The notes under the pieces were generated by a model. The model searched no databases. It was not told the DNA's origin and saw nothing but the letters and a program-made list of their open reading frames with translations. A stretch of DNA of 64,000 bases from Candidatus Parcubacteria bacterium. Its GTDB lineage: Bacteria; Patescibacteriota; Minisyncoccia; JAHIHE01; JAGLIN01. Positions 3,403 through 64,000 of this stretch are shown here, one piece after another (the first letter of the stretch is position 1; every line of letters starts with the position of its first letter). Made by a program: the position numbers and the translations under genes. The stretch lies in contig JAGLXN010000007.1 in assembly GCA_023132875.1 (NCBI GenBank), positions 1,262 through 65,261 of the forward strand, read 5' to 3'.

Positions 3403-3628
3403 AATAAAGATATTTTTATTATTTCTTTACTTTATTTTTTGCTTTACAAGACTTGTTTTTCTTATCGGCGGAAATTTTAAAAACACTCGGCGTTCTAAAT
3501 CCGGTTTTTCCTTTTGCGCATTTTCTTGATGAATGTTTTTTCATAGGTTTATTTATAATAATAATTTGACTGCTCTTTTTTATTTAAAAACCTAAGAAGC
3601 TAAAAAGCTACGACCTAAAAAGCTAATC

Positions 3629-4600: not shown

Positions 4601-4720
4601 GTAATCATTTTAACATTTTAACATATAAACATTTTAACATTAGAACTTCCTCGCTTTAACACGTTAATAAAAGTTTATGGATGTTAGAATGTTAGTATGT
4701 TAGAATGTTAGTACGTATAT

Positions 4721-6334: not shown

Positions 6335-6342
6335 GGAATTAA

Positions 6343-6450
6343 ATTGTTAGATTGTTGAATTGTTGAATTGTTGAATTGTTGAATTGTTGAATTGTTGAAT
6401 TGTTGAATTGTTGAATTGTTGAATTGTTGAATTGTTGAATTGTTGAATTG
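6343..6450. repeat. perfect 8-bp tandem repeat (TTGAATTG)x~13, i.e. (CAATTCAA)n on the minus strand
   Basis: Read directly. It abuts the nptA-like start codon (6334, minus strand) and forms its 5' leader. It creates the spurious ORF 6322..6864. Confidence 0.95.
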
Positions 6451-6899
6451 TGCTATGCATATGTAACAATAGAACAATTTAACAATAGAGCAATATAATT
6501 TTATTTTAATACTTCTGTGTTTTATGTAAAGTGTATAAGTAGTTTTGTCTTCAGTAGTGTTGAACAGATCCTGATATCCATCAAGATAAACTCCGTATAT
6601 TTTCTGCTTGTTTATATGTTTAAATGTTAATATGTTAAAATGATTTATGGGGTTGACAAATTTTCTCAGTGTGATATAGTGTTTCGTGAAGTTGAATTTT
6701 GATATTTGATTAAAATGAGACTTCAAAAATAAAGAATCTATGCAATGCACCATGAGCTGTATGCAACTGCACAAAATGCAGTAGATCAAGGAGTAGTGAG
6801 AAGAAGCATGAAATCGGAAATAGCAGAAGTCGGAAAAGAAAAATATGATACCTTTGTAAGCCACTCAGGCCCCGCATTCCAGCTACACCGAAGATAACT

Positions 6900-8996: not shown

Positions 8997-9167
8997 ATTG
9001 CAAAATTCAAATTATTCCAAATAAAATCCAAAGCTCAAATAATAAATTCATTAAGCCCGTAACTACGCGCGAAGAGTTTAGTTGCGGGATTGCTTCGTCA
9101 TTCCGTTACGCTATCGCTTCACTTCATTCCTCGCAATGACAGTAAAATTTACACAATTAATCGCGCT

Positions 9168-12649: not shown

Positions 12650-12776
12650 TCATATTAACATACTAACATTCTAACATATTAACATAATGAAACATCAAAA
12701 ATCATTCAATGTGGAACTACTGGTGTAAAAATCTTGTTAGAATGTTAAAATGTTAGTATGTTAGTATGATTTATAA

Positions 12777-13190: not shown

Positions 13191-13685
13191 ATGTCAGAAA
13201 TATTTTCAAAATTAGGATTAGATTATAAACTAATCATCGCTCAAGCAGTTAATTTTGTCTTGCTTCTTATAATCTTACAACGGCTCGCCTATAAGCCGGT
13301 TTTGAAAATGCTCAATGACAGAACTGAAAAAATTGATAAAAGCCTTAAACAAGCAAAAAAGATTGAAGAAAAGTTGAAAAATACTGAAGAAATTAAATTA
13401 GCTGAAATTAAAAAAGCAAAAGAAGAACATCAGAAAATTATAAAAGAAGCGCAAGAAATCGCGGAAAGAAAATCACAAGAAACAATTGAAAAAACCAGAG
13501 TAAAAACGCAGGAAATCGTAGAAAATGCAAAAATAGAAATAACAGCCGGAAAAGAAAAGTCAGTCAAAGAAGCAAGAAAAGAAATCGCAGATATTTCTAT
13601 TCAAATCGCTAAAAAAATCATTGGAGATAATCTAAATGAAAAAGAGCAGAAAGAAATAGCGAATGATATTTTGAGAAAGATATAA
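13191..13685 (+). CDS. atpF: F0F1 ATP synthase subunit b
   Basis: N-terminal TM helix plus a long charged coiled coil, sitting between atpE and atpH. Confidence 0.8.
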   Translation: MSEIFSKLGLDYKLIIAQAVNFVLLLIILQRLAYKPVLKMLNDRTEKIDKSLKQAKKIEEKLKNTEEIKLAEIKKAKEEHQKIIKEAQEIAERKSQETIEKTRVKTQEIVENAKIEITAGKEKSVKEARKEIADISIQIAKKIIGDNLNEKEQKEIANDILRKI

Positions 13686-13785
13686 TTGAATTGTTACATT
13701 GTCAAATTGTCAAATTGTCATCGCATCTATAAATCTTTTATTGCCTAACAATTTAGCAATATAACAATTTAACAATGTAGTTTAT

Positions 13786-14172
13786 ATGAAAATAACCCCA
13801 AAACAATACGCTATAAGCCTGTATGAAACAACAAAAAATGTTGATGGGTTTGAGATTGAAAAAAGAATAAAAAACTTTGTTGATATTTTGAAAAAAAATA
13901 ACGATTTGTCGCTAGTAGACAAAATAGTAGATGAATATAATAAACATCACAGAAATCAAAGAAATATTTCCAGAATTGAAATCACCAGTAGTAATAAATT
14001 AAATCCAGAAATTTTAAATAAGATCATTCAGAAATTCAAAAAACAAATTGAAATTGAAGAAAAGATTGATAAGTCTTTAATAGGAGGAATGGTTATAAAA
14101 ATAGATAATAGCCTCTTAATTGATGGAAGTGTTAAAAGGAAATTGGAAGATTTGAAGAAGAATTTGATGTAA
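13786..14172 (+). CDS. atpH: F0F1 ATP synthase subunit delta (OSCP), short form
   Basis: 128 aa in the operon position between b and alpha. Weak OSCP-like features only. Confidence 0.6.
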   Translation: MKITPKQYAISLYETTKNVDGFEIEKRIKNFVDILKKNNDLSLVDKIVDEYNKHHRNQRNISRIEITSSNKLNPEILNKIIQKFKKQIEIEEKIDKSLIGGMVIKIDNSLLIDGSVKRKLEDLKKNLM

Positions 14173-14291
14173 AGTTTTGATTAGTGAATTTTTGAATGCT
14201 ATTACATTGTTGCATTGTTAAATTGCTAAATTGTTATGCGTGGCATAGCAATACAGCAATTTAACAATTTAACAATTTAACAATTTAAATT

Positions 14292-15791
14292 ATGAACAGC
14301 CACATTATAGAAACTTTAAAACAACAAATAGCGCAGACTAAATTAGAGACTCAAGTTGAAAAAATCGGTAAAGTAGTAAAAATTGCCGACGGAGTCGCGG
14401 CTTTAAACGGCCTGACTGATGTTATGAGCGGCGAGCTGCTTGAATTTCCAAATGAAATTTTTGGCGTTGCTTTAAATCTGGAAGAAGACAGCATAGGAGC
14501 CATGATTCTTGGCAATTACCTCAAAATCAAAGAAGGAGATACTGTAAAAAGCACGGGGAGAATCCTTGAAGTTCCTGTTGGACAGCAAATGGTTGGAAGA
14601 GTTGTTAATGCTTTAGGCCAGGCAATAGACGGGAAAGAAGAAATTGAAACTGATCAATTCTATCCTGTAGAAAAAATTGCCCCGGGAGTCATCACAAGAA
14701 AATCAGTTGACGCCCCGCTTCAAACAGGGATTAAGGCGATTGACTCAATGATTCCAATCGGAAGAGGACAAAGAGAATTAATAATTGGAGACAGGCAAAC
14801 AGGAAAAACTGCCATTGCTATTGATGCAATTATCAACCAGAAAGGAAAAGATGTTATATGCATATATGTAGCTATCGGACAAAAAGAATCTAAAGTCGCG
14901 AAAATTGTTGCCAAGCTTGAGGAAAGCGGAGCAATGGAACATACAATTGTGGTTCTTGCCGGAGCCTCCGATCCAGCTTCTATGTCATACATAGCTCCTT
15001 ACACTGGATGCACGATAGGCGAGTATTTTATGGATCAAGGAAAAGACGCAATGATCGTATATGACGATTTAAGCAAGCATGCATGGGCATATAGGCAAAT
15101 TTCTCTTATTTTAAAAAGGCCGCCGGGAAGAGAAGCTTATCCTGGAGATATTTTCTATCTGCATTCCAGGCTTCTTGAAAGAGCGGCAAAACGCGATGAG
15201 AAATATGGCGGAGGGTCATTAACCGCACTGCCTATTATTGAAACTCAGGCCGGAGATGTTAGCGCCTACATTCCAACTAATGTTATTTCAATCACAGACG
15301 GGCAAATCTTTCTTGAAACAGACTTATTTTATCAAGGAATAAGGCCTGCTGTTAATCCAGGTATTTCAGTTTCGCGCGTTGGATCTTCGGCTCAAACAAA
15401 AGCAATGAAGAAAGTTGCGGGAAAACTGCGGCTTGAACTTGCGCAATTCAGAGAATTAGCCGCCTTTGCTCAGTTTTCAAGCGATCTTGACAAAGAAACA
15501 AAACAAAGGATTGAGCGAGGAAAAAGACTTACCGAAGTCTTGAAACAAGATCAATATGTTCCCATGGAAACAGAAGAACAGGTTGTTATTATTTTCGCTA
15601 CAATTAACGGATTTTTGGATAATGTTGAAATTGAAAAAGTAAAGAATTTCGAAAAAGAACTTCTTGAACGCTTGAGAGAGAAAAATAAAGATATTCTTGA
15701 TAAAATTGCCGAAGAAAAAGATATTTCGGAAGAAACGGATAAAAAATTAAAGGAAATTATTGAAGAGTTTAAGAAAAGATTCTCAGCATGA
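14292..15791 (+). CDS. atpA: F0F1 ATP synthase subunit alpha
   Basis: P-loop [15 protein letters not shown] and overall alpha-subunit similarity. Confidence 0.95.
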
Positions 15792-16955: not shown

Positions 16956-17111
16956 TTAAAAGTTTATAAAGTTATAAAGTTCATAAAGTTGGTGAATTAA
17001 TAACTTTTTACTTTATAAACTTTATAACTTTAGATTAAATACGCACATTGAAAATTTAGAGATTGAGTTTTGGAAAAATACAAAAAATGATTCAAAAAAA
17101 TGGAGGATTGA

Positions 17112-17360
17112 TTGAAAATGGAACATGACATAATAATACTAATAATATTACCGATAACACTAACGCCACTAGATAATATTAGTATTAAAAAAATAGAAAT
17201 AACAGAAAAAGAAATAGAGTCTTTGAAATTCAAATACGGCCCCTATTCTTTTTACATTAACTTAGGAACATACATCGTTTATGGAATTAAATCAGGAGAA
17301 ATAAAAGAAATGGGTAAACTTATCGTTTCGGAAGACGGCAATTTAGAAATAGAAGAATAA
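17112..17360 (+). CDS. hypothetical small protein inserted between atpG and atpD
   Basis: 82-aa ORF with a hydrophobic N-terminus and no recognisable family. Coding status is uncertain. Confidence 0.3.
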   Translation: MKMEHDIIILIILPITLTPLDNISIKKIEITEKEIESLKFKYGPYSFYINLGTYIVYGIKSGEIKEMGKLIVSEDGNLEIEE

Positions 17361-17411
17361 AGTATTCTATTTCTTATTTTTCCAAACCCCAATTTTTGAA
17401 AAATATAAATT

Positions 17412-17479
17412 CTGGAGTTCAGGTTTTAACCTGTAAATGTCATCCTGAGCTTGTCGAAGGCTTACACTCTTAAAGAGTG
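17412..17479. repeat. hairpin element in the atpG-atpD spacer carrying a MITE-terminus-like motif
   Basis: Perfect 10-bp inverted repeat ctggagttca/tgaactccag encloses aaatgtcatcctgagcttgtcgaagg and an inner cactctt/aagagtg hairpin. Confidence 0.7.
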
Positions 17480-17515
17480 AACTCCAGAAATATTGTTAAA
17501 ATGTTTAAATGTTAA

Positions 17516-18907
<1,392 letters not shown>

Positions 18908-18943
18908 GATTATATTGCTGTATTGCTGTATTGTTACCAGCTG

Positions 18944-19037
18944 GCTCCATTGTGGCGGAGCCCTGTGGAGCCTTATGCAAATCGGGGAAAAGTTTGCTAA
19001 AGTCACAAAAGGCTCCAGTCAGGAGACTGGAGCCAAC
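18944..19037. repeat. cluster of GC-rich GGCTCC-stem hairpins
   Basis: ggctccattgtggcggagcc and ggctccagtcaggagactggagccaac. The latter is near-identical to the copy at 23056..23082. Confidence 0.8.
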
Positions 19038-19199
19038 GAATAAACCAACAGATAAAACAAAAAACAGCTCTTTCAAAAACTGTTTTTCTGAACTTTGAAA
19101 TTTAATTTCCTTTTTTTCATTCCATAATATTATCATTCTGAATTTATTTCAGAATTCTCTACTTACTACAATAAACGAACCTAACTAATAAAAAATAAG

Positions 19200-19493
19200 T
19201 CAGCTATTGCTGACTCGTTGAAAGATGAACATGGTATTTATAGGCTCATAGATTATTTCTAAATCCTTTCCTTTTTTATTTTCAGAAGTAAAATAATTTT
19301 CTTTTACTTTTAAAAAGTGCATTGTAGAAAGTTTATAACCAGCCGTCCCAAAGTGTCTTATAACATGCTCTATATCTGCAAATATTTCTTCTTTTGTTTC
19401 AAAACCATCATCAACTATCGCAGATAGATGTATTCCACCTTTTTCTTTTTTTAAACTTGCATGCACAGAAATAGTTTGTATTTCTTCTTTCAA
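19200..19493 (-). CDS. hypothetical 97-aa protein, antisense within the atp gene cluster
   Basis: Intact ORF on the opposite strand between atpD and atpC. No family recognised. Confidence 0.4.
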   Translation of the reverse strand: MKEEIQTISVHASLKKEKGGIHLSAIVDDGFETKEEIFADIEHVIRHFGTAGYKLSTMHFLKVKENYFTSENKKGKDLEIIYEPINTMFIFQRVSNS

Positions 19494-19547
19494 AATTTTT
19501 CCTCCTCAATATCTTTATTTAATAATAATACTATATTAATTAAACTT

Positions 19548-21306: not shown

Positions 21307-21312
21307 AAAATA

Positions 21313-21522
21313 TTACTTTCTCTTTCTAGCTGGTTTTCTTTTAGCAACTTTTCTTTTGGCTGGTTTTCTTTTAGCAACTTTTCTTTTGGCTGGTTTTCTT
21401 TTAGCAGTTTTTTTGACGACTCTTTTCTTAGCTGGTTTTTTTGCAACTTTTCTTTTAACAACTTTCCTTTTTGCGGGTTTTTTAGCAACTTTTCTTTTGG
21501 CTGGTTTTCTTTTTGTAACCAC
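21313..21522 (-). CDS. lysine/alanine-rich histone H1-like basic repeat protein
   Basis: GTG start 7 nt after a strong SD (AGAGGAGGTGGAG). Tandem PAKRKVAKK repeats are encoded by 27-bp DNA repeats. The overlapping plus-strand ORF 21182..21553 is the repeat shadow. Confidence 0.65.
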   Translation of the reverse strand: MVTKRKPAKRKVAKKPAKRKVVKRKVAKKPAKKRVVKKTAKRKPAKRKVAKRKPAKRKVAKRKPARKRK

Positions 21523-21779
21523 GAAACTCCACCTCCTCTCTATATTAAGTTAGCACAAATTAAATTCCAATAATAAAAATAATGCGTTATATTTTTATCA
21601 AATGTGTTAAAAGTTCATTCAAAGATTTAATTTTTATTTTATACCTTAAAAAAATTTTAAACCTTTTCTACTTTAATTATATATTAAAAAAAATAATTTA
21701 CAATACCTTGTCAATAGTTAGGTGTCCTACATCTAGAATTTTTTTTCCTAATTTTTTTGTGGAAATTTTAAAAACTTGT

Positions 21780-22876: not shown

Positions 22877-22941
22877 GCCTCTTTTGTTAGCTATAAATAC
22901 AAATAAACTCGCTTATATGATGGTAATATTCTAAATTTTTC

Positions 22942-22967
22942 TGTCATTCTGAATTTATTTCAGAATC
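22942..22967. repeat. short hairpin repeat tgtcattctgaatttatttcagaatc
   Basis: Second copy at 19133..19157. Shares its terminus with the MITE-like family. Confidence 0.8.
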
Positions 22968-22990
22968 TATTGGCTAAAGTCTCTTGACCA

Positions 22991-25448: not shown

Positions 25449-25474
25449 TTTATAAATTATAAAATTTAAACTTC

Positions 25475-25560
25475 GTTTATTTAGTGTAAACATTAGTTTT
25501 TTTGGTGTTTTCTGTAGAAGACACTAATAAAACTAATATTTACACTAAGAAAACTAAAAC
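25475..25560. repeat. nested inverted-repeat element (tagtgta..attagtt / aactaatatt..cacta family)
   Basis: ttagtgtaaacattagttttt..gacactaataaaactaatatttacactaa. Related copies at 22..155, 37471..37560 and 63811..63950. Confidence 0.8.
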
Positions 25561-25563
25561 TGA

Positions 25564-25863
25564 TCATTTATTCTCCAAAAATTTATGCATTTCTAAAACA
25601 TCATCGTATTCAACGCAACTTTTCTCTATTTTATCAAGATCATCTTCCATAAAATCAGATATCATACTGATAGAAGTTATTCCCATAGCGCCTGCCATAA
25701 TTACCATCATCATGGAACCTTTGCATTTTTGACAATTTAGATAAAGAGTTATAACCCCGTCTTTACTGTCAATTACTTTTATGTTGTTTTTATCATACTT
25801 AAAATCGCACATCGGACATTTTGTTACTATCTGCATACTCGAAATTGGATTAAATTTTGACAT
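25564..25863 (-). CDS. small zinc-ribbon protein (hypothetical)
   Basis: CPMCD..x19..CQKCKG 4-Cys ribbon followed by a hydrophobic segment. Confidence 0.45.
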   Translation of the reverse strand: MSKFNPISSMQIVTKCPMCDFKYDKNNIKVIDSKDGVITLYLNCQKCKGSMMMVIMAGAMGITSISMISDFMEDDLDKIEKSCVEYDDVLEMHKFLENK

Positions 25864-34172: not shown

Positions 34173-35078
34173 TTATTCAAAAATCACATCTCCCATCCTA
34201 TCTGTTCTGAAAATTTCAATGCTCATATTTCTCAAACGATTTAAAAGTTCTTTCGCGGGATGTCCATAATTGTTTTTACCAGAAGAAATAATTGCTTTTT
34301 CTGGCTTTACAGCTTTTAAAAATTCGTTTGAAGTCGCGTATTTGCTTCCATGATGCGATGCTTTTAAAATTTTTGATTCTACATTAATATTTTTATCAAG
34401 CAGTTCTTTTTCAACTGGAAAACCAGCGTCTCCAGTTAATAAATAAGAATTATTAAATTTGTCATCCTGTCCGCTAGCCGGCAGATTCAGGATCTTTTGA
34501 TTTTTATCGCCATTCTCTCCTACATTAGATAAATTTTTATTAATAACCAGTTTTAATACTATGGACGCGTCATTGCTATTTTTAACTTCTTTGCTTTCTA
34601 AGCTCTCAAAAGGATATAAAACAGCCATTTCTACATTTCCTGCTTTTATCCTCTGCCCGAACTGAGCGTATTTTACGGAAATATTTTTTTCTTTAATTAA
34701 TTTATCCCATTCTTTACAAATCGCTTTTTCACATTCTATGCCTGTTTCTAAAACCCGTCCTACTTCATAGTATTTTAAAACCTCAACCAACCCGCCCATA
34801 TGGTCTTTGTCTGGATGAGTCATAATTACAAGTTCAATTTTGCGGTCATAAAACGGCATATATTCTCCAAGTTTCTCTAAAATATTCTTTCCATCTCCTC
34901 CATCTATTAAAATCTGCATATCATTTCCAACATCTATTAACGCCGCATCTCCTTGTCCAACATCAAGAAAAATCACTCTTGGTGTTTGAATTGGTTTTTG
35001 CTGATAAAAAGCAACAACTGCGAGAATATTGAAGAGAAATAAAAATATTAGGATTATATAGAGATATTTTTTGGACAT
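34173..35078 (-). CDS. ComEC-type metallo-beta-lactamase domain protein (stand-alone, TM-anchored)
   Basis: VIFLDVGQGDAALID...HPDKDHMGG is the ComEC C-terminal MBL motif. It has its own N-terminal TM helix. Confidence 0.75.
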   Translation of the reverse strand: MSKKYLYIILIFLFLFNILAVVAFYQQKPIQTPRVIFLDVGQGDAALIDVGNDMQILIDGGDGKNILEKLGEYMPFYDRKIELVIMTHPDKDHMGGLVEVLKYYEVGRVLETGIECEKAICKEWDKLIKEKNISVKYAQFGQRIKAGNVEMAVLYPFESLESKEVKNSNDASIVLKLVINKNLSNVGENGDKNQKILNLPASGQDDKFNNSYLLTGDAGFPVEKELLDKNINVESKILKASHHGSKYATSNEFLKAVKPEKAIISSGKNNYGHPAKELLNRLRNMSIEIFRTDRMGDVIFE

Positions 35079-35112: not shown

Positions 35113-35682
35113 TTACAATTCAATTCCATCAACCAGCTCCTCATAATTTAAACTTGTATATTTCCAATTCTCTGGCAATTTATGTTTTTGAAAATTATAT
35201 ATTGTATAATGGTAATGGTTTTTAAAATCTTTCGCGTCTCTTATTATGTGGTCATAAAATGATTTTTGCCATTTGAATTTTGGGATTAAAGTTTGATTTT
35301 GTACGTGTTTTTGGATAAATTTGGTTTGATAATTTTTAATTAGATCCCGCATCCGAAGGCGACACGTCGACGTGTCGCCTTCGTTATGATTATTCATAAT
35401 AATATAATTTATATCCCTTGATATATTCTCTTTTAATGACCTCATTATTTTTGAAATATTAAATTCATTATTTGGATGAATCATTAAATTTAAATGATCA
35501 TAAATTATGCAAAACCCATATAATTTAAATTTCTTTACTTCTTTACATAATTTTAATTCTTCAACCAACAATTCGCAAAATATTAACTCTTTAAAATACG
35601 GAAAATTTTGAAATGTTTTTGTGACGATGAAATAAACATTATTATCTATAAAATCACGCTTTTGTGAATTGCGATGCTGCAT
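35113..35682 (-). mobile_element. REP-associated tyrosine transposase (RAYT / IS200-like Y1) family protein, HUH motif degenerate
   Basis: C-terminal KWQKSFYDHIIRD..NHYHYTIYN matches the RAYT WQ(R/K)x(Y/F)(Y/W)DHxIR...YIxxNP motif. The HUH position reads DHLNL. A REP-like palindrome lies inside the ORF. Confidence 0.55.
35352..35381. repeat. REP-like perfect palindrome cgaaggcgacacgtcgacgtgtcgccttcg
   Basis: 30-bp perfect palindrome, GC-rich, in frame within the RAYT gene. A related copy is at 62825..62851. Confidence 0.85.
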
Positions 35683-35686
35683 AATT

Positions 35687-37192
35687 TTATCTGAAATTAT
35701 TAATCTTTTTGTTAAAACTTATATATGCTTTTATCTGTGAATAATTAAATCCCAAAACCAAAACTGCATAATAAACAGCAATAAACAAAAAATTAAATTT
35801 CTCAAAACTAAAATATCCGAAATCAAGACTGGCAAACAATTTTATAATCTCAATTTGATAAGACAAAATCAGCCAGATTGGCCATGATAATATTTGCGCG
35901 ACGAACAAATTTACAAAACCAATAATAATAAGTAAAAGCCCTCCAAGCATAACGACCGGCACGAAAGGCAGAATTAGAACATTAGCAAAAACTGAAAACA
36001 AAGAAAAGCTTCCGAAACTGTTAATAATGATCGGCAGTGTTGCAATCTGCGCCGAAATGGTTATCAGAAACATTGTCTTGATCTTCAAACAATCGGGATA
36101 TTTTTTCAAATAAAAATCAAGTCTTGGATATATATAAATTATACCAAGCACTGCTAAAAATGAAAGCTGGAATCCGGTATCATATCGCAATAGATTCGGA
36201 TCATACAAAAGCATTAAAACTCCGGCAAAAACAACCGCGTTGCAGGCGCTATTAAGCCGTCCAACTTTTACCGCAAATAATATAAGCCCTCCCATTACAA
36301 ACGCACGTACTGCCGAAGATGGAAAACCGACGAGAGCGACAAAAAAAGCAATTCCTAAAATCGCAAAATAAAACGCGTAATTTCTTCTTAATCCAACAGC
36401 AAGCAATAGATACATAAATACGATCGATACGATCGTCATGTGAAGCCCTGAAATGGCTATAATGTGCCTTGTGCCGGTTTTATTGAAACTTTCCAGCGTC
36501 TTAGAGCTTATACTCGATTTTATCCCCAGTGTCATCGCGCTTACAATTCCTGCTTGCGGTTCTGGAAATATTTTTTTGATAATATTATTCGCGTATATTC
36601 TAAATTGTGAAATTTGAAAATTAATTCCCGCGTCATTTTTCTCCACTATTTCTATTTCTGGATAATACGCGATATAATAAATCCCTTTTGAGAAAAGATA
36701 ATCTCGGTAAGCAAAACCGTCAAAATCTTCTGGAATTTTTATCTTTCCCTTAAATCTAATTTTATCAGTAAAATTATATTCAGGATAGTGATCCGCGTAT
36801 ACAATAATTTTTCCATTAATATTACTGTTATTCTCAATATTCTTTATATTTTTAATCACTATTTTTTGCTTTTCATTTTTAATTTCTGGCGCTTGTAAAA
36901 TTTCTCCGCTTATTAGCGCTTCTTGATTATCTAAACTTTTTATTTCAGAAATCTTATTTTTGCTTAATTTTCCGCTTTCAATTCTTATAAAACCCAGTAA
37001 AATAAAAATGGCTAGCAATAATATTATTCTTGCATTTTTGTTATCCCGCAATAAAAAAACAAGCGAGATAAAAAATCCAGCTTCTAAAAATAAAATCCAA
37101 ATTTGAATTGAAAAATAAGAGCCTAAAAAAATCCCAGAAATAAACGCGGCACAAAACAACAAAAAATATTTTGACCTAGTCATTGATCTCAA
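35687..37192 (-). CDS. comEC: ComEC/Rec2 competence protein, membrane channel part
   Basis: DUF4131-like N-terminus plus the competence domain (HIIAISGLHMTIV...). It lacks the MBL domain, which is encoded separately downstream after the RAYT gene. Confidence 0.75.
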   Translation of the reverse strand: MRSMTRSKYFLLFCAAFISGIFLGSYFSIQIWILFLEAGFFISLVFLLRDNKNARIILLLAIFILLGFIRIESGKLSKNKISEIKSLDNQEALISGEILQAPEIKNEKQKIVIKNIKNIENNSNINGKIIVYADHYPEYNFTDKIRFKGKIKIPEDFDGFAYRDYLFSKGIYYIAYYPEIEIVEKNDAGINFQISQFRIYANNIIKKIFPEPQAGIVSAMTLGIKSSISSKTLESFNKTGTRHIIAISGLHMTIVSIVFMYLLLAVGLRRNYAFYFAILGIAFFVALVGFPSSAVRAFVMGGLILFAVKVGRLNSACNAVVFAGVLMLLYDPNLLRYDTGFQLSFLAVLGIIYIYPRLDFYLKKYPDCLKIKTMFLITISAQIATLPIIINSFGSFSLFSVFANVLILPFVPVVMLGGLLLIIIGFVNLFVAQILSWPIWLILSYQIEIIKLFASLDFGYFSFEKFNFLFIAVYYAVLVLGFNYSQIKAYISFNKKINNFR

Positions 37193-37445: not shown

Positions 37446-37470
37446 CTTTTTAAAATTGTAACTTTTAAAA

Positions 37471-37560
37471 TTAGTTTACTTAGTGTAATTATTAGTTGTT
37501 CTAGTGTTTTATCTATAAAACACTAAAGAAACTAACGCTCACACTAAAAAAACTAAAACG
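37471..37560. repeat. nested inverted-repeat element, subfamily B
   Basis: ttagtttacttagtgtaattattagtt...cactaaagaaactaacgctcacactaaaaaaactaaaacg. Its tail matches the 25475..25560 copy. Confidence 0.75.
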
Positions 37561-37576
37561 CAATCTACAACAAATC

Positions 37577-38299
37577 TCAATCCAACACCACTACATTTTT
37601 ACAATATTTCTTTAACTTCTTAGACATTTTTTCTAGTTCTTCTTTTTCGTAAGGTTTTACATTTTCAAAACTATTGTGTAAAGTTTTTTCTGATCTGAAA
37701 TTCTGGATTGAATAACGAAATAATTTTGGAAAAATATTTTTACTAATTCTATTTATCCAATTTATCATCTCATCAAAATCTTCCTGATTGACATATCCAG
37801 GCACAACCGTTGTTCGAAGTTCTAATTTACTTTCACTGTCTGTAATCAAGCTTATACTTTTTTCTATATTTTCTATAATATCATCTTTTTTCGTCATAGT
37901 CTTATATTTTTCCGGAGTTGTTTTTATGTCTATTGCCCAATAATCAACCAAATTATCCTTTACCAAATCAGAAACAACGCTAAAATGAGATCCATTAGTA
38001 TCAACTTTCACCAAAAATCTCATCTCTTTTATTTTTTTTATAAATTCTTTCAAACCAAGCTGTAAAGTCGGCTCTCCACCCGTAATACAAACTCCATCCA
38101 AGTCCCCTTTTCTTAATTCTAAAAATTCTAATATTTCTTTCTCCTTTATTTTATTTTCATAATCAATTAATTTTACATCCACCAATTCAGGATTATGACA
38201 AAACGGACAACGAAAATTACATCCCATAGTAAAAACAACCGCGGCAATTCTCCCCGGATAATCTAACATTGTAAATTTTTGAAATCCACCGATAAACAT
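37577..38299 (-). CDS. nrdG: anaerobic ribonucleoside-triphosphate reductase activating protein
   Basis: Radical-SAM CNFRCPFCHN, GGEP, and size typical of NrdG. Confidence 0.85.
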   Translation of the reverse strand: MFIGGFQKFTMLDYPGRIAAVVFTMGCNFRCPFCHNPELVDVKLIDYENKIKEKEILEFLELRKGDLDGVCITGGEPTLQLGLKEFIKKIKEMRFLVKVDTNGSHFSVVSDLVKDNLVDYWAIDIKTTPEKYKTMTKKDDIIENIEKSISLITDSESKLELRTTVVPGYVNQEDFDEMINWINRISKNIFPKLFRYSIQNFRSEKTLHNSFENVKPYEKEELEKMSKKLKKYCKNVVVLD

Positions 38300-42309: not shown

Positions 42310-43563
42310 TTACGGCAAAAAAGTTTTAAAAATCTTTCTCACTTTTTGCCCAACTCCGCCCAACGATGGCAGTTTAAATTTTCCGCCGCTAGAGGAAAAA
42401 ACTCCGTTTTCATCAGCTTCCCACATAATAAGCCCCATCACCGTAGCAAATGAAGGATCATCAACCCTATCAATTATTCCATTTAACTCAATAGGAAAAC
42501 CGACTTGCGCCGGCAGTCTAAGAGTTTCTTTCGCCATAGCAACAATTCCAGGCATTTTAGCGCCGCCACCGGTTATAACAGCTCCTGCCGGAAGCATGCC
42601 GCTTCTGTCAATTTTTTTAAGCTCTTTGTCTACCATTACAAATATTTCTTCAACTCTCGCTTCAATAATTTCTGCAATATACTTTCTGGTAAAAACTCCT
42701 TCTTCGTTTTTGTCAATCTGAGAAAGATCTATCTTATCTTTCTTGCTTATTTCCGCGGTAAGCACTGTACCGTACTCAAGTTTTATTTTTTCAGCAACAT
42801 CGATTGAGGTTCTGAGCCCTATAGCAATGTCATTCGTAATATGTCCTGCTCCGATCGGAATAACAGTTGAATGCAATATATTACCATCTTCAAAAACAGA
42901 AATTCCAGTCGTGCCTTTTCCAATATCAATTACAACCACGCCTAATTCTCTTTGGCGCTTTAACAAAACCGCTTTCGCGGCGGCAAGAGGAGAAAAAACC
43001 AAATCATCTATATCAATTCCGCAGCGCTGTATGCATTTATATAAATTTTTTATAAATGGAACTGACCCTTCGACCACTAAGGCATTTACTTCTAACCGCA
43101 CGCCATTCATTCCTATTGGATCTTTTATTTGTTCTTGTCCGTCAATCGTATAACTGCACGGAATCACATCAATTATTTCCTTATTATTTGGCATTGATAT
43201 TGCTTGTGAAGCAATAATAACTCTGTTTATGTCTTCCTCACTGATTTCTCCATCTGCCCTTGAAACAGCAACAACGCCTTTGGAAAATTGAGAACATATA
43301 TGATTTCCATTTATACTCACGAACGCATGTTCAACTGGGATTCCTGCTGTTCTTTCTGCTAATTCCTTTGATTTAGTTATTGCATTGATAGTTTCTTCAA
43401 TATCAACAACAACTCCATTATTAATCCCAAATGAAGGAGCCGTTCCAACTCCTAAAATTAGAGGCTTTGACTCTTCTCCCTGTTTCTGAGAAATAACAGT
43501 TCGAACAGCGCTAGCCCCAATATCAATTCCTATTAAAATATCTCCTCTTGACATAGAATTCAT
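42310..43563 (-). CDS. ftsA: cell division protein FtsA
   Basis: Actin-fold ATPase with DIGASAVR and FtsA-specific regions. Located immediately upstream of ftsZ. Confidence 0.9.
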   Translation of the reverse strand: MNSMSRGDILIGIDIGASAVRTVISQKQGEESKPLILGVGTAPSFGINNGVVVDIEETINAITKSKELAERTAGIPVEHAFVSINGNHICSQFSKGVVAVSRADGEISEEDINRVIIASQAISMPNNKEIIDVIPCSYTIDGQEQIKDPIGMNGVRLEVNALVVEGSVPFIKNLYKCIQRCGIDIDDLVFSPLAAAKAVLLKRQRELGVVVIDIGKGTTGISVFEDGNILHSTVIPIGAGHITNDIAIGLRTSIDVAEKIKLEYGTVLTAEISKKDKIDLSQIDKNEEGVFTRKYIAEIIEARVEEIFVMVDKELKKIDRSGMLPAGAVITGGGAKMPGIVAMAKETLRLPAQVGFPIELNGIIDRVDDPSFATVMGLIMWEADENGVFSSSGGKFKLPSLGGVGQKVRKIFKTFLP

Positions 43564-43777
43564 CTTAACATTTTAACATATTAACATTTTAACATAATTT
43601 ACACTAAAATTTCTGCCAAATATTTTGACGAATTATAATATTACTAAACTATCTAAATATCTTTACATTTTATACTTTCAAAAAGCCAAACAAAAAATCT
43701 TGTTAAAATGTTAAAATGTTAAAATGTTAGCATGATACTTATATTATAATACATTTTTAAAAAATAAAAAAGCCCTT

Positions 43778-49543: not shown

Positions 49544-49597
49544 TGTCATTCTGAAACAAATTCAGAGCTTGTCCTGAATTTAGTTCAGGGATGACAG
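49544..49597. repeat. short MITE-family variant (two back-to-back hairpins)
   Basis: The sequence is ttgtcattctgaaacaaattcagag cttgtcctgaatttagttcagggatgacag. Confidence 0.7.
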
Positions 49598-53289: not shown

Positions 53290-53342
53290 AAGTTTGTAAA
53301 GTAAAAAGTTCGTAAAGTTGTAAAGTTGTAAACAACAGCGTC

Positions 53343-53460
53343 TGTCATCCTGAAAGAGTGGAACGACTGAAGGATCCCAAGTTTAATTTCGTATAGTGTA
53401 ATATTAAAGTTCTGAGTGTATAGTTACGGGATTCTATCGCCTTCGGCTTCAGAATGACAG
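53343..53460. repeat. MITE-like element with TIRs TGTCATCCTGAA / TTCAGAATGACA
   Basis: 118 bp with perfect 11-12 bp terminal inverted repeats and an internal gggattctatcgcc shared with the 60260..60380 copy. Confidence 0.8.
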
Positions 53461-53535
53461 ATTTAAATAATTTGAAAAATCGGCAAAATAAAAAAAGAGA
53501 CAATAAATTGTCTCTTGGCTTAGTGTCGTAAAAAG

Positions 53536-53913: not shown

Positions 53914-56199
53914 ATGTCAACCTCAAAAATCAAAAAACTCATCATTGTGGAATCTCCCACAAAAGCGAAAACTATCACGAAATTTTTAGGCAATGAATAT
54001 ATTATCAGGTCTTCTTTCGGCCATCTTCGCGATCTGCCGAAAAGCAAATTGGGAGTTGATACGGAAAATAATTTTAAACCGGAATATGTTATAAATCCAA
54101 AAAGCAAAAAACAGGCCGCTGAATTGAAAAAGTATGCCAAAGAGTGTGATGAGATTATATTGGCATCTGATGAGGACCGCGAGGGAGAAGCGATTGCCTG
54201 GCATTTAGCTCAATTATTGAATCTTGAAGGATTTGGAACTGGAAAAAAAGAAAAGAAATATAAAAGAATTGTTTTTCACGAGATCACAAAAAAAGCTATT
54301 TTAAACGCCTTAGATAATCCAAGAAGTATAGACATGAACTTGGTTGACGCGCAGCAAGCCAGAAGAATTCTAGACCGACTCGTGGGATACAAGCTATCCC
54401 CTCTTCTCTGGAAAAAAATTCGCTACGGGCTTTCAGCAGGACGAGTTCAGTCTGTTGCAGTTCGTTTAATTGTTGAGAGAGAAGAAGAAATAAATAAATT
54501 TAATCCAGAAGAATATTGGTTAATTGAAGCAATGGTTCGACAGGTTCACTATGACAAAAAATGTCACCCTGAGCTTGTCGAAGGGTTTAATGCTAGATTG
54601 ATTAAAATTGATGGAAAATCAATCGGAAAACTAGGTGTTAAAACTAAAAAAGAGGCTGAAAAAATTAAGCAAGATCTTGAAAAGGTAAAATATGAAATTG
54701 AAAAAATAACGAAGAAAGAAACAAAGAAAAATCCTGTTCCGCCATTTACAACCAGCACCTTACAGCAAGCTTCTAGCAATAAATTCGGCTATAGCGCCAA
54801 ACAAACAATGATGATCGCTCAACAGCTCTATGAGGGAATTAATCTTGGCTCAAGGGGTTCAAGCGGTTTAATAACCTATATGAGAACTGACTCTTTAAGC
54901 TTGAGTAAAAGTTCGCTTGAATCAGCTGAAAATTATATTAAAAATAAGTTTGGAAATAAATATGCCGAAAGAAGATTCTTCAAAACAAAAAGCAAAGGCG
55001 CGCAAGAAGCGCATGAAGCTATTCGTCCGACAAACCCAGAAATTGATCCGGAAAGTATTAAAGAATTTTTAGACAACAAACAATTTAAAATTTATGAATT
55101 GATCTGGCAAAGAATGGTAGCATCTCAAATGGCAAGCGCGATTGTGGATTCAACTATCATTGATATTTTAGCCGAAAGCAAAAAGGAGTTCAACTCCGAA
55201 GCTTCAGGGTTGAACTCCTTTTTGTTGCGCGCCACTGGGTCAACAATAAAATTTAAAGGATTTTTAAAAGTATATCCAATAAAATCAGAAGAAATCATCT
55301 TGCCGAAACTGACAGAAAAAGAGAAATTAGATCTTATAAAAATTGTCAGCGAACAGCATTTCACCCAGCCTCCGGCAAGATTTAATGAAGCAAGTTTAAT
55401 CAAAGTTCTCGAAGAGCTTGGAATCGGACGACCATCAACATACGCTCCGACTATCAGCACTATTCAAGACAGGGGCTATATTAAAAAAATTGAAAAAAGG
55501 CTTCATCCGCAAGAAATCGGCATTTTAGTAAATAAACTTTTAGTTGAACACTTTCCAAAAATTGTAAATGTTAAGTTTACGGCAAAAATGGAAGAGGATT
55601 TAGACAAAGTAGCAGAAAATAAAAAAAATTGGGTTGTAATATTAAAAGATTTTTATAAACCATTTAAAACAAATCTTATGCAAAAAGAAAAAGAAATTGA
55701 TAAAAAAGAGTTGACCGAAGAAGCAACTGATAAGGTGTGTGAAAAATGCGGAAAGCCAATGATAATAAAAATGGGACGCTTCGGAAAATTTATGGCATGC
55801 AGCAATTATCCAGACTGTAAAAATACAAAACAGCTGGATGATAAAGGAGAGATAGAAGAGCCTGAAATTACTAATGAAATCTGCGAAAAATGCGGAAAGC
55901 CAATGGTATTTAAAATTGGACGCTATGGAAAGTTTTTGGGCTGCTCCGGCTACCCAAACTGCAAAAATATAAAACCGATAGTGAAATCTACCGGAGTTCA
56001 ATGCCCAGAGTGCGGCAAGGGCGAAATTGTTGAGAAAAAATCAAAAGCCGGCCGAGTATTCTTCGCCTGTAGCGGATACCCAAACTGCAAATACGCGATG
56101 TGGAATAAACCGACTGGAGAAAAGTGTCCAAAATGCGGCAACCTAATAGTTTACGCAAAAAATGACAGCGTGGCTTGTTCAAACAAGGAGTGCAAATAA
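53914..56199 (+). CDS. topA: DNA topoisomerase I
   Basis: TOPRIM (VESPTKAKTI), catalytic domains, and three C-terminal CxxC...CxxC zinc ribbons. Confidence 0.95.
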   Translation: MSTSKIKKLIIVESPTKAKTITKFLGNEYIIRSSFGHLRDLPKSKLGVDTENNFKPEYVINPKSKKQAAELKKYAKECDEIILASDEDREGEAIAWHLAQLLNLEGFGTGKKEKKYKRIVFHEITKKAILNALDNPRSIDMNLVDAQQARRILDRLVGYKLSPLLWKKIRYGLSAGRVQSVAVRLIVEREEEINKFNPEEYWLIEAMVRQVHYDKKCHPELVEGFNARLIKIDGKSIGKLGVKTKKEAEKIKQDLEKVKYEIEKITKKETKKNPVPPFTTSTLQQASSNKFGYSAKQTMMIAQQLYEGINLGSRGSSGLITYMRTDSLSLSKSSLESAENYIKNKFGNKYAERRFFKTKSKGAQEAHEAIRPTNPEIDPESIKEFLDNKQFKIYELIWQRMVASQMASAIVDSTIIDILAESKKEFNSEASGLNSFLLRATGSTIKFKGFLKVYPIKSEEIILPKLTEKEKLDLIKIVSEQHFTQPPARFNEASLIKVLEELGIGRPSTYAPTISTIQDRGYIKKIEKRLHPQEIGILVNKLLVEHFPKIVNVKFTAKMEEDLDKVAENKKNWVVILKDFYKPFKTNLMQKEKEIDKKELTEEATDKVCEKCGKPMIIKMGRFGKFMACSNYPDCKNTKQLDDKGEIEEPEITNEICEKCGKPMVFKIGRYGKFLGCSGYPNCKNIKPIVKSTGVQCPECGKGEIVEKKSKAGRVFFACSGYPNCKYAMWNKPTGEKCPKCGNLIVYAKNDSVACSNKECK

Positions 56200-56239: not shown

Positions 56240-56806
56240 ATGAAAAAAATAAAAATAGGGGTTTCGGGAGATGTTGGCAGTTTTTCAGAGCAAGCCACGA
56301 ATGAATACGCCAGAAAAAACGGAATTAAAAACTATGAAATTAAGTGCCTTATTTCCGTAGAAAAAGTACTCACTGAACTTGACAAAAAGAAAATAGATCT
56401 TGGAATTTTTCCTATTGAAAATTCAAATGGCGGGATTGTGATTGAAAGCGTAAATGCAATCAGCAAGCATATTTTTAAAATAAAAAATATTTTTGAAATC
56501 CCGGTAATTCATTGTTTGTTGACAAAACCCGGTATTGAAAAAGAGGATATAAAAAATATAGCTTCTCATGATCAAGCTTTAAAGCAATGCAAAATGTATT
56601 TAAAAAGAAAATGGACAGAAACTCAATTGCAGGAAACTAAAGATACAGCAAAATCAGCAAAAGATCTTTCAGAAGGAAAATTATCTGAAGACACCGCGGT
56701 CCTCGCTCCTGAAAGCTGCGCCACTTTATACGGCCTTATCGTTATGGAAAAAGGAATCCAGGATTTAAAATTTAATTTCACGAATTTTTTGGCAGTGGAG
56801 AAGTAG
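56240..56806 (+). CDS. prephenate dehydratase (PDT) catalytic-domain protein without ACT domain, paralog 1
   Basis: The IGVSGDVGSFSEQA, FPIENSNGG and SHDQALKQC segments follow the PDT-domain pattern. The catalytic TRF motif reads FTNF. 188 aa, so there is no room for the regulatory ACT domain. Confidence 0.7.
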   Translation: MKKIKIGVSGDVGSFSEQATNEYARKNGIKNYEIKCLISVEKVLTELDKKKIDLGIFPIENSNGGIVIESVNAISKHIFKIKNIFEIPVIHCLLTKPGIEKEDIKNIASHDQALKQCKMYLKRKWTETQLQETKDTAKSAKDLSEGKLSEDTAVLAPESCATLYGLIVMEKGIQDLKFNFTNFLAVEK

Positions 56807-56882: not shown

Positions 56883-57710
56883 TTAAATTGTCTCTGCTTT
56901 TGGATAAGATCCTAAAACAACTATCTCTTTCACTTTACTAATTACTTCTGTTAACGCATTTTTGAAATTTTCATCATCACAATGACCATCTGCATCAACA
57001 AAGAATGTCCGAGAACTCGATATCTCTTCTGCAGGAAGAGACGAAAGCATTGTCATATTTATTTTGTTCTTTGTAAATATGTGCAAAACTTTTTCTAAGG
57101 AACCAGCCTTATCCTCTACCTTAAAGAATAATGTTGTTTTATCTTTTCCCGTAGGTTTTGTTTTATTTTTATTTAAGAGCATAAATCTTGTTATATTATC
57201 TCCTTGATCATTTATATCTCTTTCTATAATCGCAATATTAAATTCCTTTGAAGCTTCTTCAGAGCCAATCGCTGCAATTGACTTATCCTTTGTTTTTGAA
57301 GCCAACTCAACGGCTTCTGCCGTGCTATTAGTTATTTTTATACAAATATCATTTAATCCTCCTAAATATCCAATACACTGCATAATCCCCTGCGAATGAG
57401 AATAAACAACTTTAACATCTTCTATCTTGCCATAACCAACAAGACACTGTTGAATTTTAAGATATAGTTCTCTAATACCGTAAAATGGCTTCATCAATTG
57501 TAGTTCTTTTAGCACATCAATAACTGCCTTTCCTGTTGAATTTGATATAGGAACAACAATTTCATCTACTTCATTATTTTTAAAAGCCTCAATCAAACTT
57601 TTAAAGTCTGAATGAAACACTATTTTAGTTTCATTGTATTTCTTTGCAAACTTAATAGTAGCAACATGAGAAAAGGTCGCTGCTGGACCTAAGCATCCGA
57701 TTGTTATCAT
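56883..57710 (-). CDS. pheA: prephenate dehydratase (PDT + ACT domains)
   Basis: GPAATFSH, NITRFMLL (TRF motif) and ACT-domain ESRP-equivalent LSSLPAEEI are present. Start reassigned to MITIG (ATG at 57710), which sits 9 nt after AAGGAGG. Confidence 0.75.
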   Translation of the reverse strand: MITIGCLGPAATFSHVATIKFAKKYNETKIVFHSDFKSLIEAFKNNEVDEIVVPISNSTGKAVIDVLKELQLMKPFYGIRELYLKIQQCLVGYGKIEDVKVVYSHSQGIMQCIGYLGGLNDICIKITNSTAEAVELASKTKDKSIAAIGSEEASKEFNIAIIERDINDQGDNITRFMLLNKNKTKPTGKDKTTLFFKVEDKAGSLEKVLHIFTKNKINMTMLSSLPAEEISSSRTFFVDADGHCDDENFKNALTEVISKVKEIVVLGSYPKAETI

Positions 57711-57744
57711 CTTATGATTCCTCCTTATATTGTAAATGTGCAGA

Positions 57745-57820
57745 ATGTCCTGGGTAAGATTTGAACTCACGACTCCATGCTTTTCACACAGACTCTATGC
57801 CAAACTAAGACACTAGGGCT
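57745..57820 (-). other. tRNA-like fragment (T-arm plus 3' acceptor half), possible tRNA pseudogene or integration-site remnant
   Basis: Minus strand reads gtgag-TTCAAAT-cttac followed by ccaggac, i.e. a T-stem-loop plus a 7-nt 3' acceptor strand. The matching 5' acceptor strand (gccctag) pairs at only 5/7, and the anticodon loop is non-canonical. Confidence 0.3.
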
Positions 57821-58169: not shown

Positions 58170-58736
58170 ATGAAAAAACTAAAAATAGGAGTCTCAGGCA
58201 ATGTTGGCAGTTTTTCAGAAGAGGCCGCCAATTATTATTGCCACAATAATAATATAAAAAATTATGAAATTCAGTATTTAATAAGCGTCAAGAACACAAT
58301 GGAAGCCCTAAAAAAGGGCGAGATAGACAAGGGCATTTTTCCAATTGAAAATTCAAATGGAGGCATCGTTCATGAAGCGATTTATGCTATGAGCGAATAT
58401 GTTTTTGATATTGAAAATATATTTGAGATTGACGTTAAGCACTGCTTGCTTGCAAAACCGGGAACAAAAGCAAACGACATAAAAAAAATAGCTTCCCATC
58501 CGCAGGCGCTCAAACAATGCAGAATGTATTTGAAGAAAAAATGGGGGAATCTTCAATTACAGGAATATTCTGACACAGCTGACGCGGCAAAAGACTTGCG
58601 TGAAGGAAAAATTCCCCCCGACACCGGAGTAATCGCTTGTAAAAAATGCGCAAAATTATATGAATTGAACCTGCTTGAAGAAGGAATACAAGATTTGAAA
58701 TTCAACTTCACGACATTTATAACGGCGACTATGTAA
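58170..58736 (+). CDS. prephenate dehydratase (PDT) catalytic-domain protein without ACT domain, paralog 2
   Basis: About 55% identical to 56240..56806. The catalytic motif reads FTTF. Confidence 0.7.
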   Translation: MKKLKIGVSGNVGSFSEEAANYYCHNNNIKNYEIQYLISVKNTMEALKKGEIDKGIFPIENSNGGIVHEAIYAMSEYVFDIENIFEIDVKHCLLAKPGTKANDIKKIASHPQALKQCRMYLKKKWGNLQLQEYSDTADAAKDLREGKIPPDTGVIACKKCAKLYELNLLEEGIQDLKFNFTTFITATM

Positions 58737-60259: not shown

Positions 60260-60380
60260 TGTCATCCTAGAGTGTAGTGAAACAGAACGATAGGATCTCG
60301 AGTTTAGCATTATAAAATTTTATTCCATGGTTTTGTGCGCGTAGTTTCGGGATTCTATCGCTATCGCTCTAGAATGACAG
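60260..60380. repeat. MITE-like element with TIRs TGTCATCCTAGAG / CTCTAGAATGACA
   Basis: 121 bp carrying internal cgataggatctcg and tttcgggattctatcgc motifs shared with 53343..53460 and 3277..3402. Confidence 0.8.
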
Positions 60381-63796: not shown

Positions 63797-63810
63797 GTTT
63801 TATATTACAT

Positions 63811-63950
63811 TGGATTACGAAATTCTATTTTTAGTTATCTTCGCGTGAATATTAGTTCAATTAGCGTTTATTATAGGAAACATTAATAAAACTAATATTC
63901 ACGCTAAACAAACAAATTATAAGAGTTTTGTAATTTAAAAATATTAACAA
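63811..63950. repeat. nested inverted-repeat element, subfamily A (right window end)
   Basis: ggattacgaaattctatttttagttatcttcgcgt(a/g)aatattagtt... is shared with the first 150 bp of the window. Confidence 0.8.
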
Positions 63951-64000
63951 ATAATGTTTTTATTTTATAGTTATATTATAACATAGAAATGATAATAAAT

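Follow-up and report, generated by a model that had tools for sequence, protein, structure and literature searches.

TGTC-Tagged, REP-Like Stem-Loops in a Patescibacteria Genome, Probably of a Widespread Hairpin Family, with Copies in Frame in topA and a ComEC-Type Gene

Palindromic repeats are dispersed through the 64-kb stretch of DNA analysed here (the window; 32.7% GC, part of an 831,018-bp scaffold of ENA metagenome assembly ERZ23498665), both between genes and in frame within them. We consider it probable, at roughly 0.65, that these repeats are TGTC-tagged, REP-like stem-loops of the CGTC/TGTC REP superfamily, akin to the NTS/SRM hairpins of Neisseria, and that an Ssn-type nuclease would account for their mobilisation. 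Judged by their sequence, they appear to be a Patescibacteria population of a REP-like hairpin family found in ~20 bacterial phyla. Homologs of two proteins that carry in-frame copies, TopA and a ComEC-type MBL protein, bear the source labels Patescibacteria, Pacebacteria or Parcubacteria. An earlier reading of this DNA, here called the original prediction, had described three long copies and several shorter derivatives as a family of miniature inverted-repeat transposable elements (MITEs). The long copies lie where it placed them, at 3277-3401, 53343-53459 and 60260-60379, with a G directly after each. The MITE label did not survive: what we found are self-folding tagged units with no target-site duplications and no parent insertion sequence (IS) in sight.

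Results

The Repeat Unit Is a Tagged Stem-Loop

The unit is a stem-loop of ~30-40 nt. An unpaired TGTC tag precedes a 5-8-bp stem whose first pairs are A-T and T-A; the loop has GA at both borders (GA...GA, canonically GAGCGNAGCGA), and the tail, CYN, starts with C. In its canonical form, 5 bp are followed by tandem G.A, 2 bp and a GNA loop. A covariance model, R1, trained on 69 units from other phyla and none from the window, found eight units in the window at E<0.05 and two more at E<0.1, and all eight of the former start with TGTC. Scanning the window for the tag plus a 5-bp stem was non-discriminating (14 matches versus ~8.5 in controls), and the covariance model was used instead. The motif TGTCATCCTGA, with up to two mismatches, occurred 22 times in the window versus 10.7 +/- 3.6 times in shuffled sequence; none of 100 shuffles reached 22.

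Stems in the window include ATCCT/AGGAT, ATTCT/AGAAT, ATCTC/GAGAT, ATTTC/GAAAT, ATTCTGAA/TTCAGAAT and ATCCTG/CAGGAT. The hairpins at 22940 and 19129 have 8-bp stems and 5-nt loops, and the units within dimers have stems of 5-6 bp and GA...GA loops of 12-21 nt. Of the tails (CCC three times, CTA twice, and CTC, CCG and CTT), only the leading C is kept; the canonical tail is CTN. In the 69 units from other organisms the first two stem pairs (model positions 7-39 and 8-38) are invariantly AU and UA, and the inner, apical stem covaries (GC 45, AU 15, CG 3).

The Long Copies Are Head-to-Head Dimers of Units

Each of the three long copies (117-125 nt) consists of two inverted units, and R1 matched both ends of all three (Table 1). 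They share TGTCAT...ATGACA ends and a right-hand segment of the GGGATTCTATCG type, their middles have diverged, and their mean column identity is 72%. The original prediction had seen terminal inverted repeats around a common core. The shared ends are real, and the 11-13-nt inverted repeats turned out to be the outer halves of two units that each fold on their own; the GGGATTCTATCG core is no internal module, being the tail and stem of the right-hand unit. All four head-to-head dimers of the window have their tags outside and pair a C:G-type with a T:A-type unit. An AT-rich, fast-evolving spacer of ~45-60 nt separates the units of the long copies, and one of 6 nt separates those of the fourth dimer.

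The C:G and T:A types differ at the third stem base pair, which in every long copy is C:G at one end and T:A at the other; stem positions 4-5 co-change between copies (CT, CTA, TC). Because of this difference between the ends, the local hairpins are perfect, while a helix running from end to end would carry C.A and G.T mismatches. We therefore rejected the long end-to-end helix as the selected structure, since the asymmetry preserves local hairpins and breaks the long pairing. The same asymmetry was seen in the 137 listed pattern matches from other genomes, on inner arms that the search pattern leaves unconstrained: AGGAT in 100 and AGAAT in 5 on the left, and ATTCT in 90 and ATCCT in 7 on the right. 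The tagged local hairpins are thus under structural constraint.

Table 1. Dimers, single units and the RAYT-like gene of the window, in window positions; E values are those of model R1.
Feature	Position	Strand	Sequence or structure	Location	E
Head-to-head dimer	53343-53459	+	~45-nt AT-rich spacer	between dprA stop codon and small minus-strand open reading frame (ORF)	
53343 dimer, left unit	53341-53380	+	TGTC-ATCCT-(GA..19 nt..GA)-AGGAT-CCC		3.7e-5
53343 dimer, right unit	53426-53461	-	TGTC-ATTCT-(15-nt loop)-AGAAT-CCC		1.1e-3
Head-to-head dimer	60260-60379	+	ATCCTA/TAGGAT and ATTCTA/TAGAAT	between GT4 stop and GT2 start	4.5e-3, 9.3e-4
Head-to-head dimer, reversed orientation	3277-3401	-			0.048, 0.033 (its two units)
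3277 dimer, T:A-type unit	3275-3312	+	ATTTC/GAAAT		
3277 dimer, C:G-type unit	3363-3403	-	ATCTC/GAGAT		
Tight head-to-head dimer	49544-49596	-	6-bp hairpins TCTGAA/TTCAGA and CCTGAA/TTCAGG, GCTTGT between, TGTCAT...ATGACA outside	divergent promoter region	0.83 (weak)
Single unit	22940-22971	+	TGTC-ATTCTGAA-TTTAT-TTCAGAAT-CTA; 8-bp stem, 5-nt loop	between convergent genes	6.4e-5
Single hairpin, degenerate tag TATC	19129-19161	+		between two small minus-strand ORFs in the atpD-atpC gap	2.2 (weak)
Single decayed unit	17436-17465	+	TGTC-ATCCT-GAGCTTGTCGA-AGGcT	upstream of atpD	0.09
Doubtful, highly diverged unit	9083-9146	-	TGTC-ATTGC-(39-nt loop)-GCAAT-CCC; permissive tag-plus-stem scan only		
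In-frame insert, tags inward	54536-54585	+	TTCGACAGGTTCACTATGACA-AAAAA-TGTCACCCTGAGCTTGTCGAAGGG; encodes ...VRQVHYDKKCHPELVEG	topA	0.08
In-frame unit	34458-34498	+	TGTC-ATCCTG-(18-nt loop)-CAGGAT-CTT	ComEC-type MBL gene (34173-35078, -)	1.7e-3
RAYT-like Y1 (IS200-type) gene	35113-35682	-		between ComEC membrane part (35687-37192) and MBL gene (34173-35078)	

Among the dimers, the 60260 copy has a right-hand loop (GAGCGATAGCGA) near the canonical form and folds as RNA at -46.3 kcal/mol (z = -6.65), and a related genome (L126, ~10185-10330) carries an ATCTC/GAGAT dimer similar to the 3277 copy. The short hairpins that the original prediction listed as derivatives fared unequally. The one at 22942 is well matched by the model and folds with z = -3.2; a 31-nt identical copy lies just beyond the window (L001:21401, about window position 65314). 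Weaker are the tight dimer at 49544, which folds well (z = -5.58), and the hairpin given as 19133, which has 23 nt in common with 22942 and z = -3.5. The derivative placed at 9096-9146 was not borne out, with no model match and a fold z of -0.23. The decayed unit at 17436 is nested in a bigger hairpin (~17410-17489, z = -5.0).

All six single units (17436, 19129, 22940, 34458, 54560 and L001:21401) have TGTC on the plus strand, 19129 being TATC in the unit list. About 71% of the coding sequence lies on the minus strand, and the plus-strand GC skew is -0.12. The strand bias of the single units may be linked to replication; with n=6 and gene orientation as a confounder, it proves nothing.

Units Turn Over between Relatives and Leave No Target-Site Duplications

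Comparison with related genomes revealed units that were gained, lost or internally remodelled. The 53343 element is present in a 99% identical strain (L122) and absent from two other relatives (L123 and L124); the dprA-topA spacer measures 624 nt in the window versus 52 nt in L123. Likewise, the 49544 dimer is absent from the orthologous spacer of L124. At the GT2-GT4 site, where the window has its 120-nt dimer, L123 has a 38-nt perfect palindrome with the same termini (TGTCATTCTGATCCGCCAGCTGGCGGATCAGAATGACA): the termini persist and the interiors are replaced. The original prediction had called the family mobile and active in the lineage. These are indeed dispersed non-coding repeats whose presence differs between relatives, and activity is shown only as gain or loss since the split of lineages with ~86% TopA identity; the long copies are old and diverged.

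The proposed check for target-site duplications, run at the copy boundaries, found none at any of the four head-to-head dimers, nor any at k>=5 in 134 elements from other organisms, where matches at k = 2-4 were near chance. An IS with the same terminal inverted repeats was likewise absent from the window and from ~2 Mb of fetched loci. These results bear on the reading as a classical MITE. Such an element derives by deletion from a DDE-type IS, its terminal inverted repeats serve for recognition, and its insertion duplicates the target site. TG...CA termini, inverted ends of 11-13 nt, a size of 117-125 nt and long-hairpin folds are what one would look for in such an element, and the window repeats resemble the Correia/NEMIS, RUP and Nezha MITEs in being ~120 nt long, hairpin-forming and intergenic with inverted ends. 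However, they lack the duplication and the parent IS, and their ends are autonomous tagged hairpins: each end self-folds, single ends occur alone, and the ends covary between copies instead of being fixed (CCTGA/TCAGA, CCTAGAG/CTCTAGA, TTCGA/TCGAG). We reject the DDE-MITE reading because there are no target-site duplications; it is by now largely refuted and very improbable.

In-Frame Copies in topA, a ComEC-Type MBL Gene and dprA

A match between the atpG-atpD hairpin and the topA coding sequence had been put at 29 of 30 nt. The match is real and extends over 26 of 27 nt (AAATGTCA[T/C]CCTGAGCTTGTCGAAGG). That the topA stretch is an in-frame insertion was upheld: the peptide CHPELVEG is absent from all TopA orthologs at 78-88% identity (P0002-P0025 lack the insert), and the stretch is therefore an insertion. 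The two solved TopA homologs both have a gap here; among the orthologs, the 99% strain alone has the insert, as CHSELVEG. The codon alignment gives eight extra codons (54562-54585, TGTCACCCTGAGCTTGTCGAAGGG) relative to L123 and six relative to L124. The left half of the insert, 54536-54556, was overlooked in the original prediction; since TTCGACAGGTTCACTATGACA represents a decayed, oppositely oriented unit, the insert as a whole is a dimer with its tags inward. The alternative that topA was the source of the motif fails, as the same unit occurs in many phyla.

In a TopA ortholog of 72% identity (L125), RPFDKLRVNS...HDKK stands at the same place and is the unit in reverse orientation. Several other orthologs (P0008, P0009, P0044, P0047, P0048, P0051 and P0052) have, in the loop equivalent to ~54530-54590, peptides that resemble other repeat families, such as PPDKGGLGGV, PPLSKGVRGI, QITNKSQIQNSK and SAQGGPASGWQ. 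From these alignments, the TopA loop appears to be a general hot spot for in-frame repeat insertion.

The unit at 34458 had also been overlooked. On the strand of the MBL gene it translates as KILNLPASGQDDK. Basal orthologs of this protein have a turn of 2-4 residues at the site, and others have ILKQVQDD, ILRQAQDD, PFDKLRMT or ILNPPAGGQND. In L125 a perfect in-frame unit lies near the DprA N-terminus. In-frame copies thus persist in TopA and MBL loops that are gapped or very short in homologs. They may be what is left after selection on reading frame and on position in the loop, an argument also made for the RPEs. As Di Nocera et al. (2013; PMC3733652) describe them, RPEs are palindromic repeats in frame in genes likely to code for functional proteins, which is also the situation in TopA, the ComEC MBL domain and a relative's DprA. 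Here, in contrast, the phylum is another one, the inserts (24-50 nt) are shorter than the RPE-1 type, and insertions by several unrelated repeat families recur in the same two loops.

The Family Recurs in Many Phyla and in Viral Contigs

We scanned species-representative genomes with the pattern TGTCATCCT-N85-115-AGAATGACA. At least 120 loci from ~20 phyla matched, among them Parcubacteria, Paceibacterota, Saccharibacteria and several Patescibacteria as well as cultured Pedobacter, Tenacibaculum, Hymenobacter and Geosporobacter. Most of the listed matches had the form TGTCATCCTGAGCGNAGCGAAGGATCT...AGATTCTTCGCTNCGCTCAGAATGACA, and the canonical unit was present in at least 120 IMG/VR contigs. 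Individual variants are shared too: TGTCATTCTGAATTTATTTCAGAATC occurs in this genome and in a Saccharibacteria metagenome-assembled genome (MAG; L102), with a C:G variant in a Gastranaerophilales MAG (L005), and L053 and L125 have the same GAGCTTGTCGA loop as the topA unit. In four loci (L003, L044, L067 and L080) termini are at times tandemly reiterated, as (TGTCATCCTGAGC + 7-10 nt) x 3-4 on the left and, for example, (CTCAGAATGACA + 10 nt) x 3 at the right end.

No Rfam family matched the elements in the window at the gathering threshold or at E<=5, and there was no match at the gathering threshold in 18 loci with canonical copies; the scans gave only tRNAs and chance miRNA-like matches on unrelated AT-rich hairpins. 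Literature searches for the DNA motif and its derived peptides (PELVEG, FDKLRVT, HPERSEGS and others) matched primer coincidences only, and a keyword search for palindromic elements of the CPR returned nothing relevant.

This breadth bears on the idea that the repeats are immobile RNA or DNA structures selected by the host, for example terminators, mRNA stabilisers, or processing or protein-binding sites, which arose and were remodelled in place. For several units (53343, 22940 and L001:21401) the site is indeed the 3' end of a gene or the gap of a convergent gene pair, the GT2-GT4 site keeps its termini while the interior differs between genomes, and PMC3733652 credits REPs with such roles. 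However, separate local origins would hardly account for near-identical units in ~20 phyla and in viral contigs. Copies also occur in either orientation relative to transcription, the 49544 dimer lies in a divergent promoter region, three genes contain in-frame copies, and no U-tract follows the hairpins; the lack of an Rfam family points the same way. We regard this explanation as unlikely.

Candidate Partner Enzymes

In five loci that had been fetched by the repeat only (L027, L063, L080, L043 and L266), a gene for a single-domain GIY-YIG protein of 92-100 aa lies 4-130 nt from the nearest unit. Units stand on both sides of the gene in L027, L063 and L266, and the repeat-adjacent proteins score 60-66 bits against Pfam GIY-YIG. 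A reciprocal GIY-YIG profile scan of viral contigs added no locus beyond one already known.

A different partner is suggested by the gene at 35113-35682, which lies 0.6 kb from the intragenic MBL unit. Its product scores 74.3 bits against NCBIfam REP_Tyr_transpos (cut-off 80) and 28 bits against Pfam Y1_Tnp (cut-off 23). With such a Y1 HUH transposase, the dimers could be REPINs, that is, REP doublets mobilised by a RAYT. Two inverted hairpins with a spacer and no target-site duplication fit REPINs (Bertels and Rainey 2011, PMC3116915; PMC3337134), and non-autonomy and long persistence at a site are further likenesses to PMC3116915. RAYT-like genes were also present in 3 of the 120 listed pattern loci, and in the related Patescibacteria genome L126 (GCA_034660995.1, 16038-16636) a complete-looking IS200, encoding a 136-aa Y1_Tnp protein and having end hairpins of its own, lies ~150 nt from a single TGTC unit. 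However, the tag here is TGTC and not the GTAG of REPINs, and the REP-flanked, single-copy RAYT described in PMC3116915 contrasts with an unassociated gene in the window: it has a degenerate HUH motif (HLN), gaps of 4 and 34 nt to its neighbours, and no flanking units. The genes in L036, L091 and L115 are 0.9-1.9 kb from units and likewise unflanked, and no TGTC unit occurs in 23 metagenome loci (98 kb) with homologs of the RAYT-like gene, all in other gene contexts. Nor did Di Nocera et al. (PMC3733652) find CGTC REPs to be associated with a RAYT. With the window gene and the three loci unflanked and the 23 homolog loci unit-free, we rejected a RAYT as the partner, and a REPIN/RAYT system is an improbable explanation of the dimers.

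Other Features of the Window

Tandem repeats with an 8-bp period flank most genes (6323-6474, 4592-4717, 12650-12770, 13684-13795, 14191-14296, 43555-43744 and 53290-53330). Among the types are TTGAATTG (~17 copies at 6323-6474), ATGTTAAA and AATTTAAC, and the blocks on the two flanks of a gene are often inverted; the same type is found at the dprA 3' end in orthologous contigs. A second, unrelated palindromic family has four copies of 60-80% identity (23-167, 25451-25595 in reverse, 37450-37594 and 63810-63954). These are AT-rich long hairpins of ~90-145 nt with the core ...CTTAGTGTAAATATTAGTTTTATTAGTGT...ACACTAATAAAACTAATATTCACACTAA... and DNA fold z values of -4.4 to -5.2. A direct repeat with a 15-nt period (AGCAACTTTTCTTTT / GGCTGGTTTTCTTTT) occupies 21307-21526.

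The atp operon is interrupted twice (16956-17533 and 18908-19547), by a small ORF (17112-17360, +) and a large hairpin between atpG and atpD, and by two unannotated minus-strand ORFs (18822-19136 and 19200-19493) between atpD and atpC; Pfam gave no match for any of the three small ORFs. Two paralogous genes with a prephenate dehydratase (PDT) domain (56240-56806 and 58170-58736) share 75% DNA identity over 106 nt; between them, on the minus strand, lies a third PDT-domain gene. The 5' end of this third gene's ORF (56883-57770) overlaps a weak tRNA call (33 bits, 57746-57819).

Discussion

The repeats agree best with two known systems. In Di Nocera et al. (PMC3733652), the tag of CGTC REPs is often TGTC, with CCTC as another variant; stems of 8-9 bp open with AT, loops measure 4-5 nt, and the short 3-nt tail has the consensus CCA. 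The elements form mostly head-to-head dimers with spacers of 20-100 bp, heterodimers are frequent, intragenic copies occur, and no dedicated transposase is known for them. The superfamily includes dRS3 of Neisseria and RPE-4 and RPE-6 of Rickettsia conorii. By that description, the window repeats have in common with CGTC/TGTC REPs the unpaired tag, the A-T/T-A start of the stem, the C-led tail, dimers with tags outside, in-frame intragenic copies and the lack of a flanking transposase, and the 22940 hairpin fits the published dimensions exactly. They differ in their tails (CCC, CTC or CTA instead of CCA) and in their host, a member of the Patescibacteria as opposed to the five other phyla reported there.

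The second system supplies an enzyme. Neisseria NTS hairpins (CGTCATTCCCGCG...GGGAATC) are bound and cut, as single-stranded DNA (ssDNA) only and on one strand only, by SsnA, a 94-aa single-domain GIY-YIG nuclease whose gene is flanked by the repeats (Nat Commun 2025; PMC11893778). Cutting depends on the three bases that precede the stem, and binding on the C that follows it; homologs occur across phyla, and cleavage of ssDNA but not of double-stranded DNA or RNA is published for the Neisseria and Wolbachia homologs only (PMC11893778). The units described here have the HGTC tag, a stem starting W-Y and a C directly after the stem, and like NTS/SRM they are hairpin repeats with a strand orientation, scattered in hundreds of copies. 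In other phyla, their placement 4-130 nt from genes for ~94-aa GIY-YIG proteins recalls the NTS-ssnA-NTS arrangement. In contrast to the continuous GC-rich stem of NTS/SRM, the stem of the unit is interrupted by a tandem G.A/A.G and topped by a GNA-type apical hairpin.

From these likenesses we infer how the units could be mobilised. They would function, and move to new sites, as hairpins of single-stranded DNA. A small ssDNA nuclease of the Ssn type (single-domain GIY-YIG), specific for its site, would recognise them in trans and would be the likeliest agent of spread, with cleavage directed by the GTC tag and binding by the C that follows the stem. Its gene would lie in another part of the genome, or may have been lost.

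Several observations weigh against assigning the repeats to the REP superfamily with an Ssn-type nuclease. The stems (5-6 bp) and loops (12-21 nt) of the window dimer units depart from the 8-9 bp and 4-5 nt given for CGTC REPs in PMC3733652. No GIY-YIG gene was found in the 64-kb window (by tblastn, and by Pfam on ten small ORFs) or in ~60 kb of related Patescibacteria loci, and a RAYT-like gene is present in the window. The published SRM pattern, HGTCWYN(0-2)YYVSBRHN(0-5)WNVSBRGN(0-2)RNCYNB, had no match in the window and none among 110 canonical units, so the window units are at least a different subtype. The long copies are diverged, and any evidence for transposition is indirect. In the C/T asymmetry between the ends, the outer half is fixed by the search pattern itself. 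Finally, many of the loci fetched by pattern are MAGs, and some of their taxon labels may be wrong.

A bolder extension would treat the GA-interrupted TGTC hairpin (TGTCATYCTGAGCGNAGCGAAGRATC and variants) as a pan-bacterial, partly virus-borne Ssn-type subtype that reaches the reduced Patescibacteria genomes and recurs as in-frame loop inserts in TopA, ComEC MBL and DprA. It could then tie an ssDNA-nuclease/hairpin system to natural transformation, as SsnA and NTS do in Neisseria; the window encodes both ComEC and DprA. We consider this speculative and rather doubtful.

The analysis corrects a likely mis-annotation, in that the repeats are probably tagged hairpins of the ssDNA type and not MITEs, and it offers modest but useful extensions of what is known of such repeats. 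CGTC/TGTC REP and NTS-like repeats would extend to the Patescibacteria as a host, to ~20 phyla and to viral contigs, with a common subtype that escapes the published SRM pattern yet adjoins small GIY-YIG nuclease genes. The insertion hot spots in TopA, ComEC-MBL and DprA offer clean cases from nature of peptides that derive from repeats and have become fixed in loops of essential or DNA-processing proteins, and such inserts account for the recurrent peptides of the PELVEG, FDKLR and ILRQAQDD types in those orthologs. If the source genome encodes a matching Ssn nuclease, the connection of hairpin repeats with DNA uptake would become open to test in an uncultured lineage.

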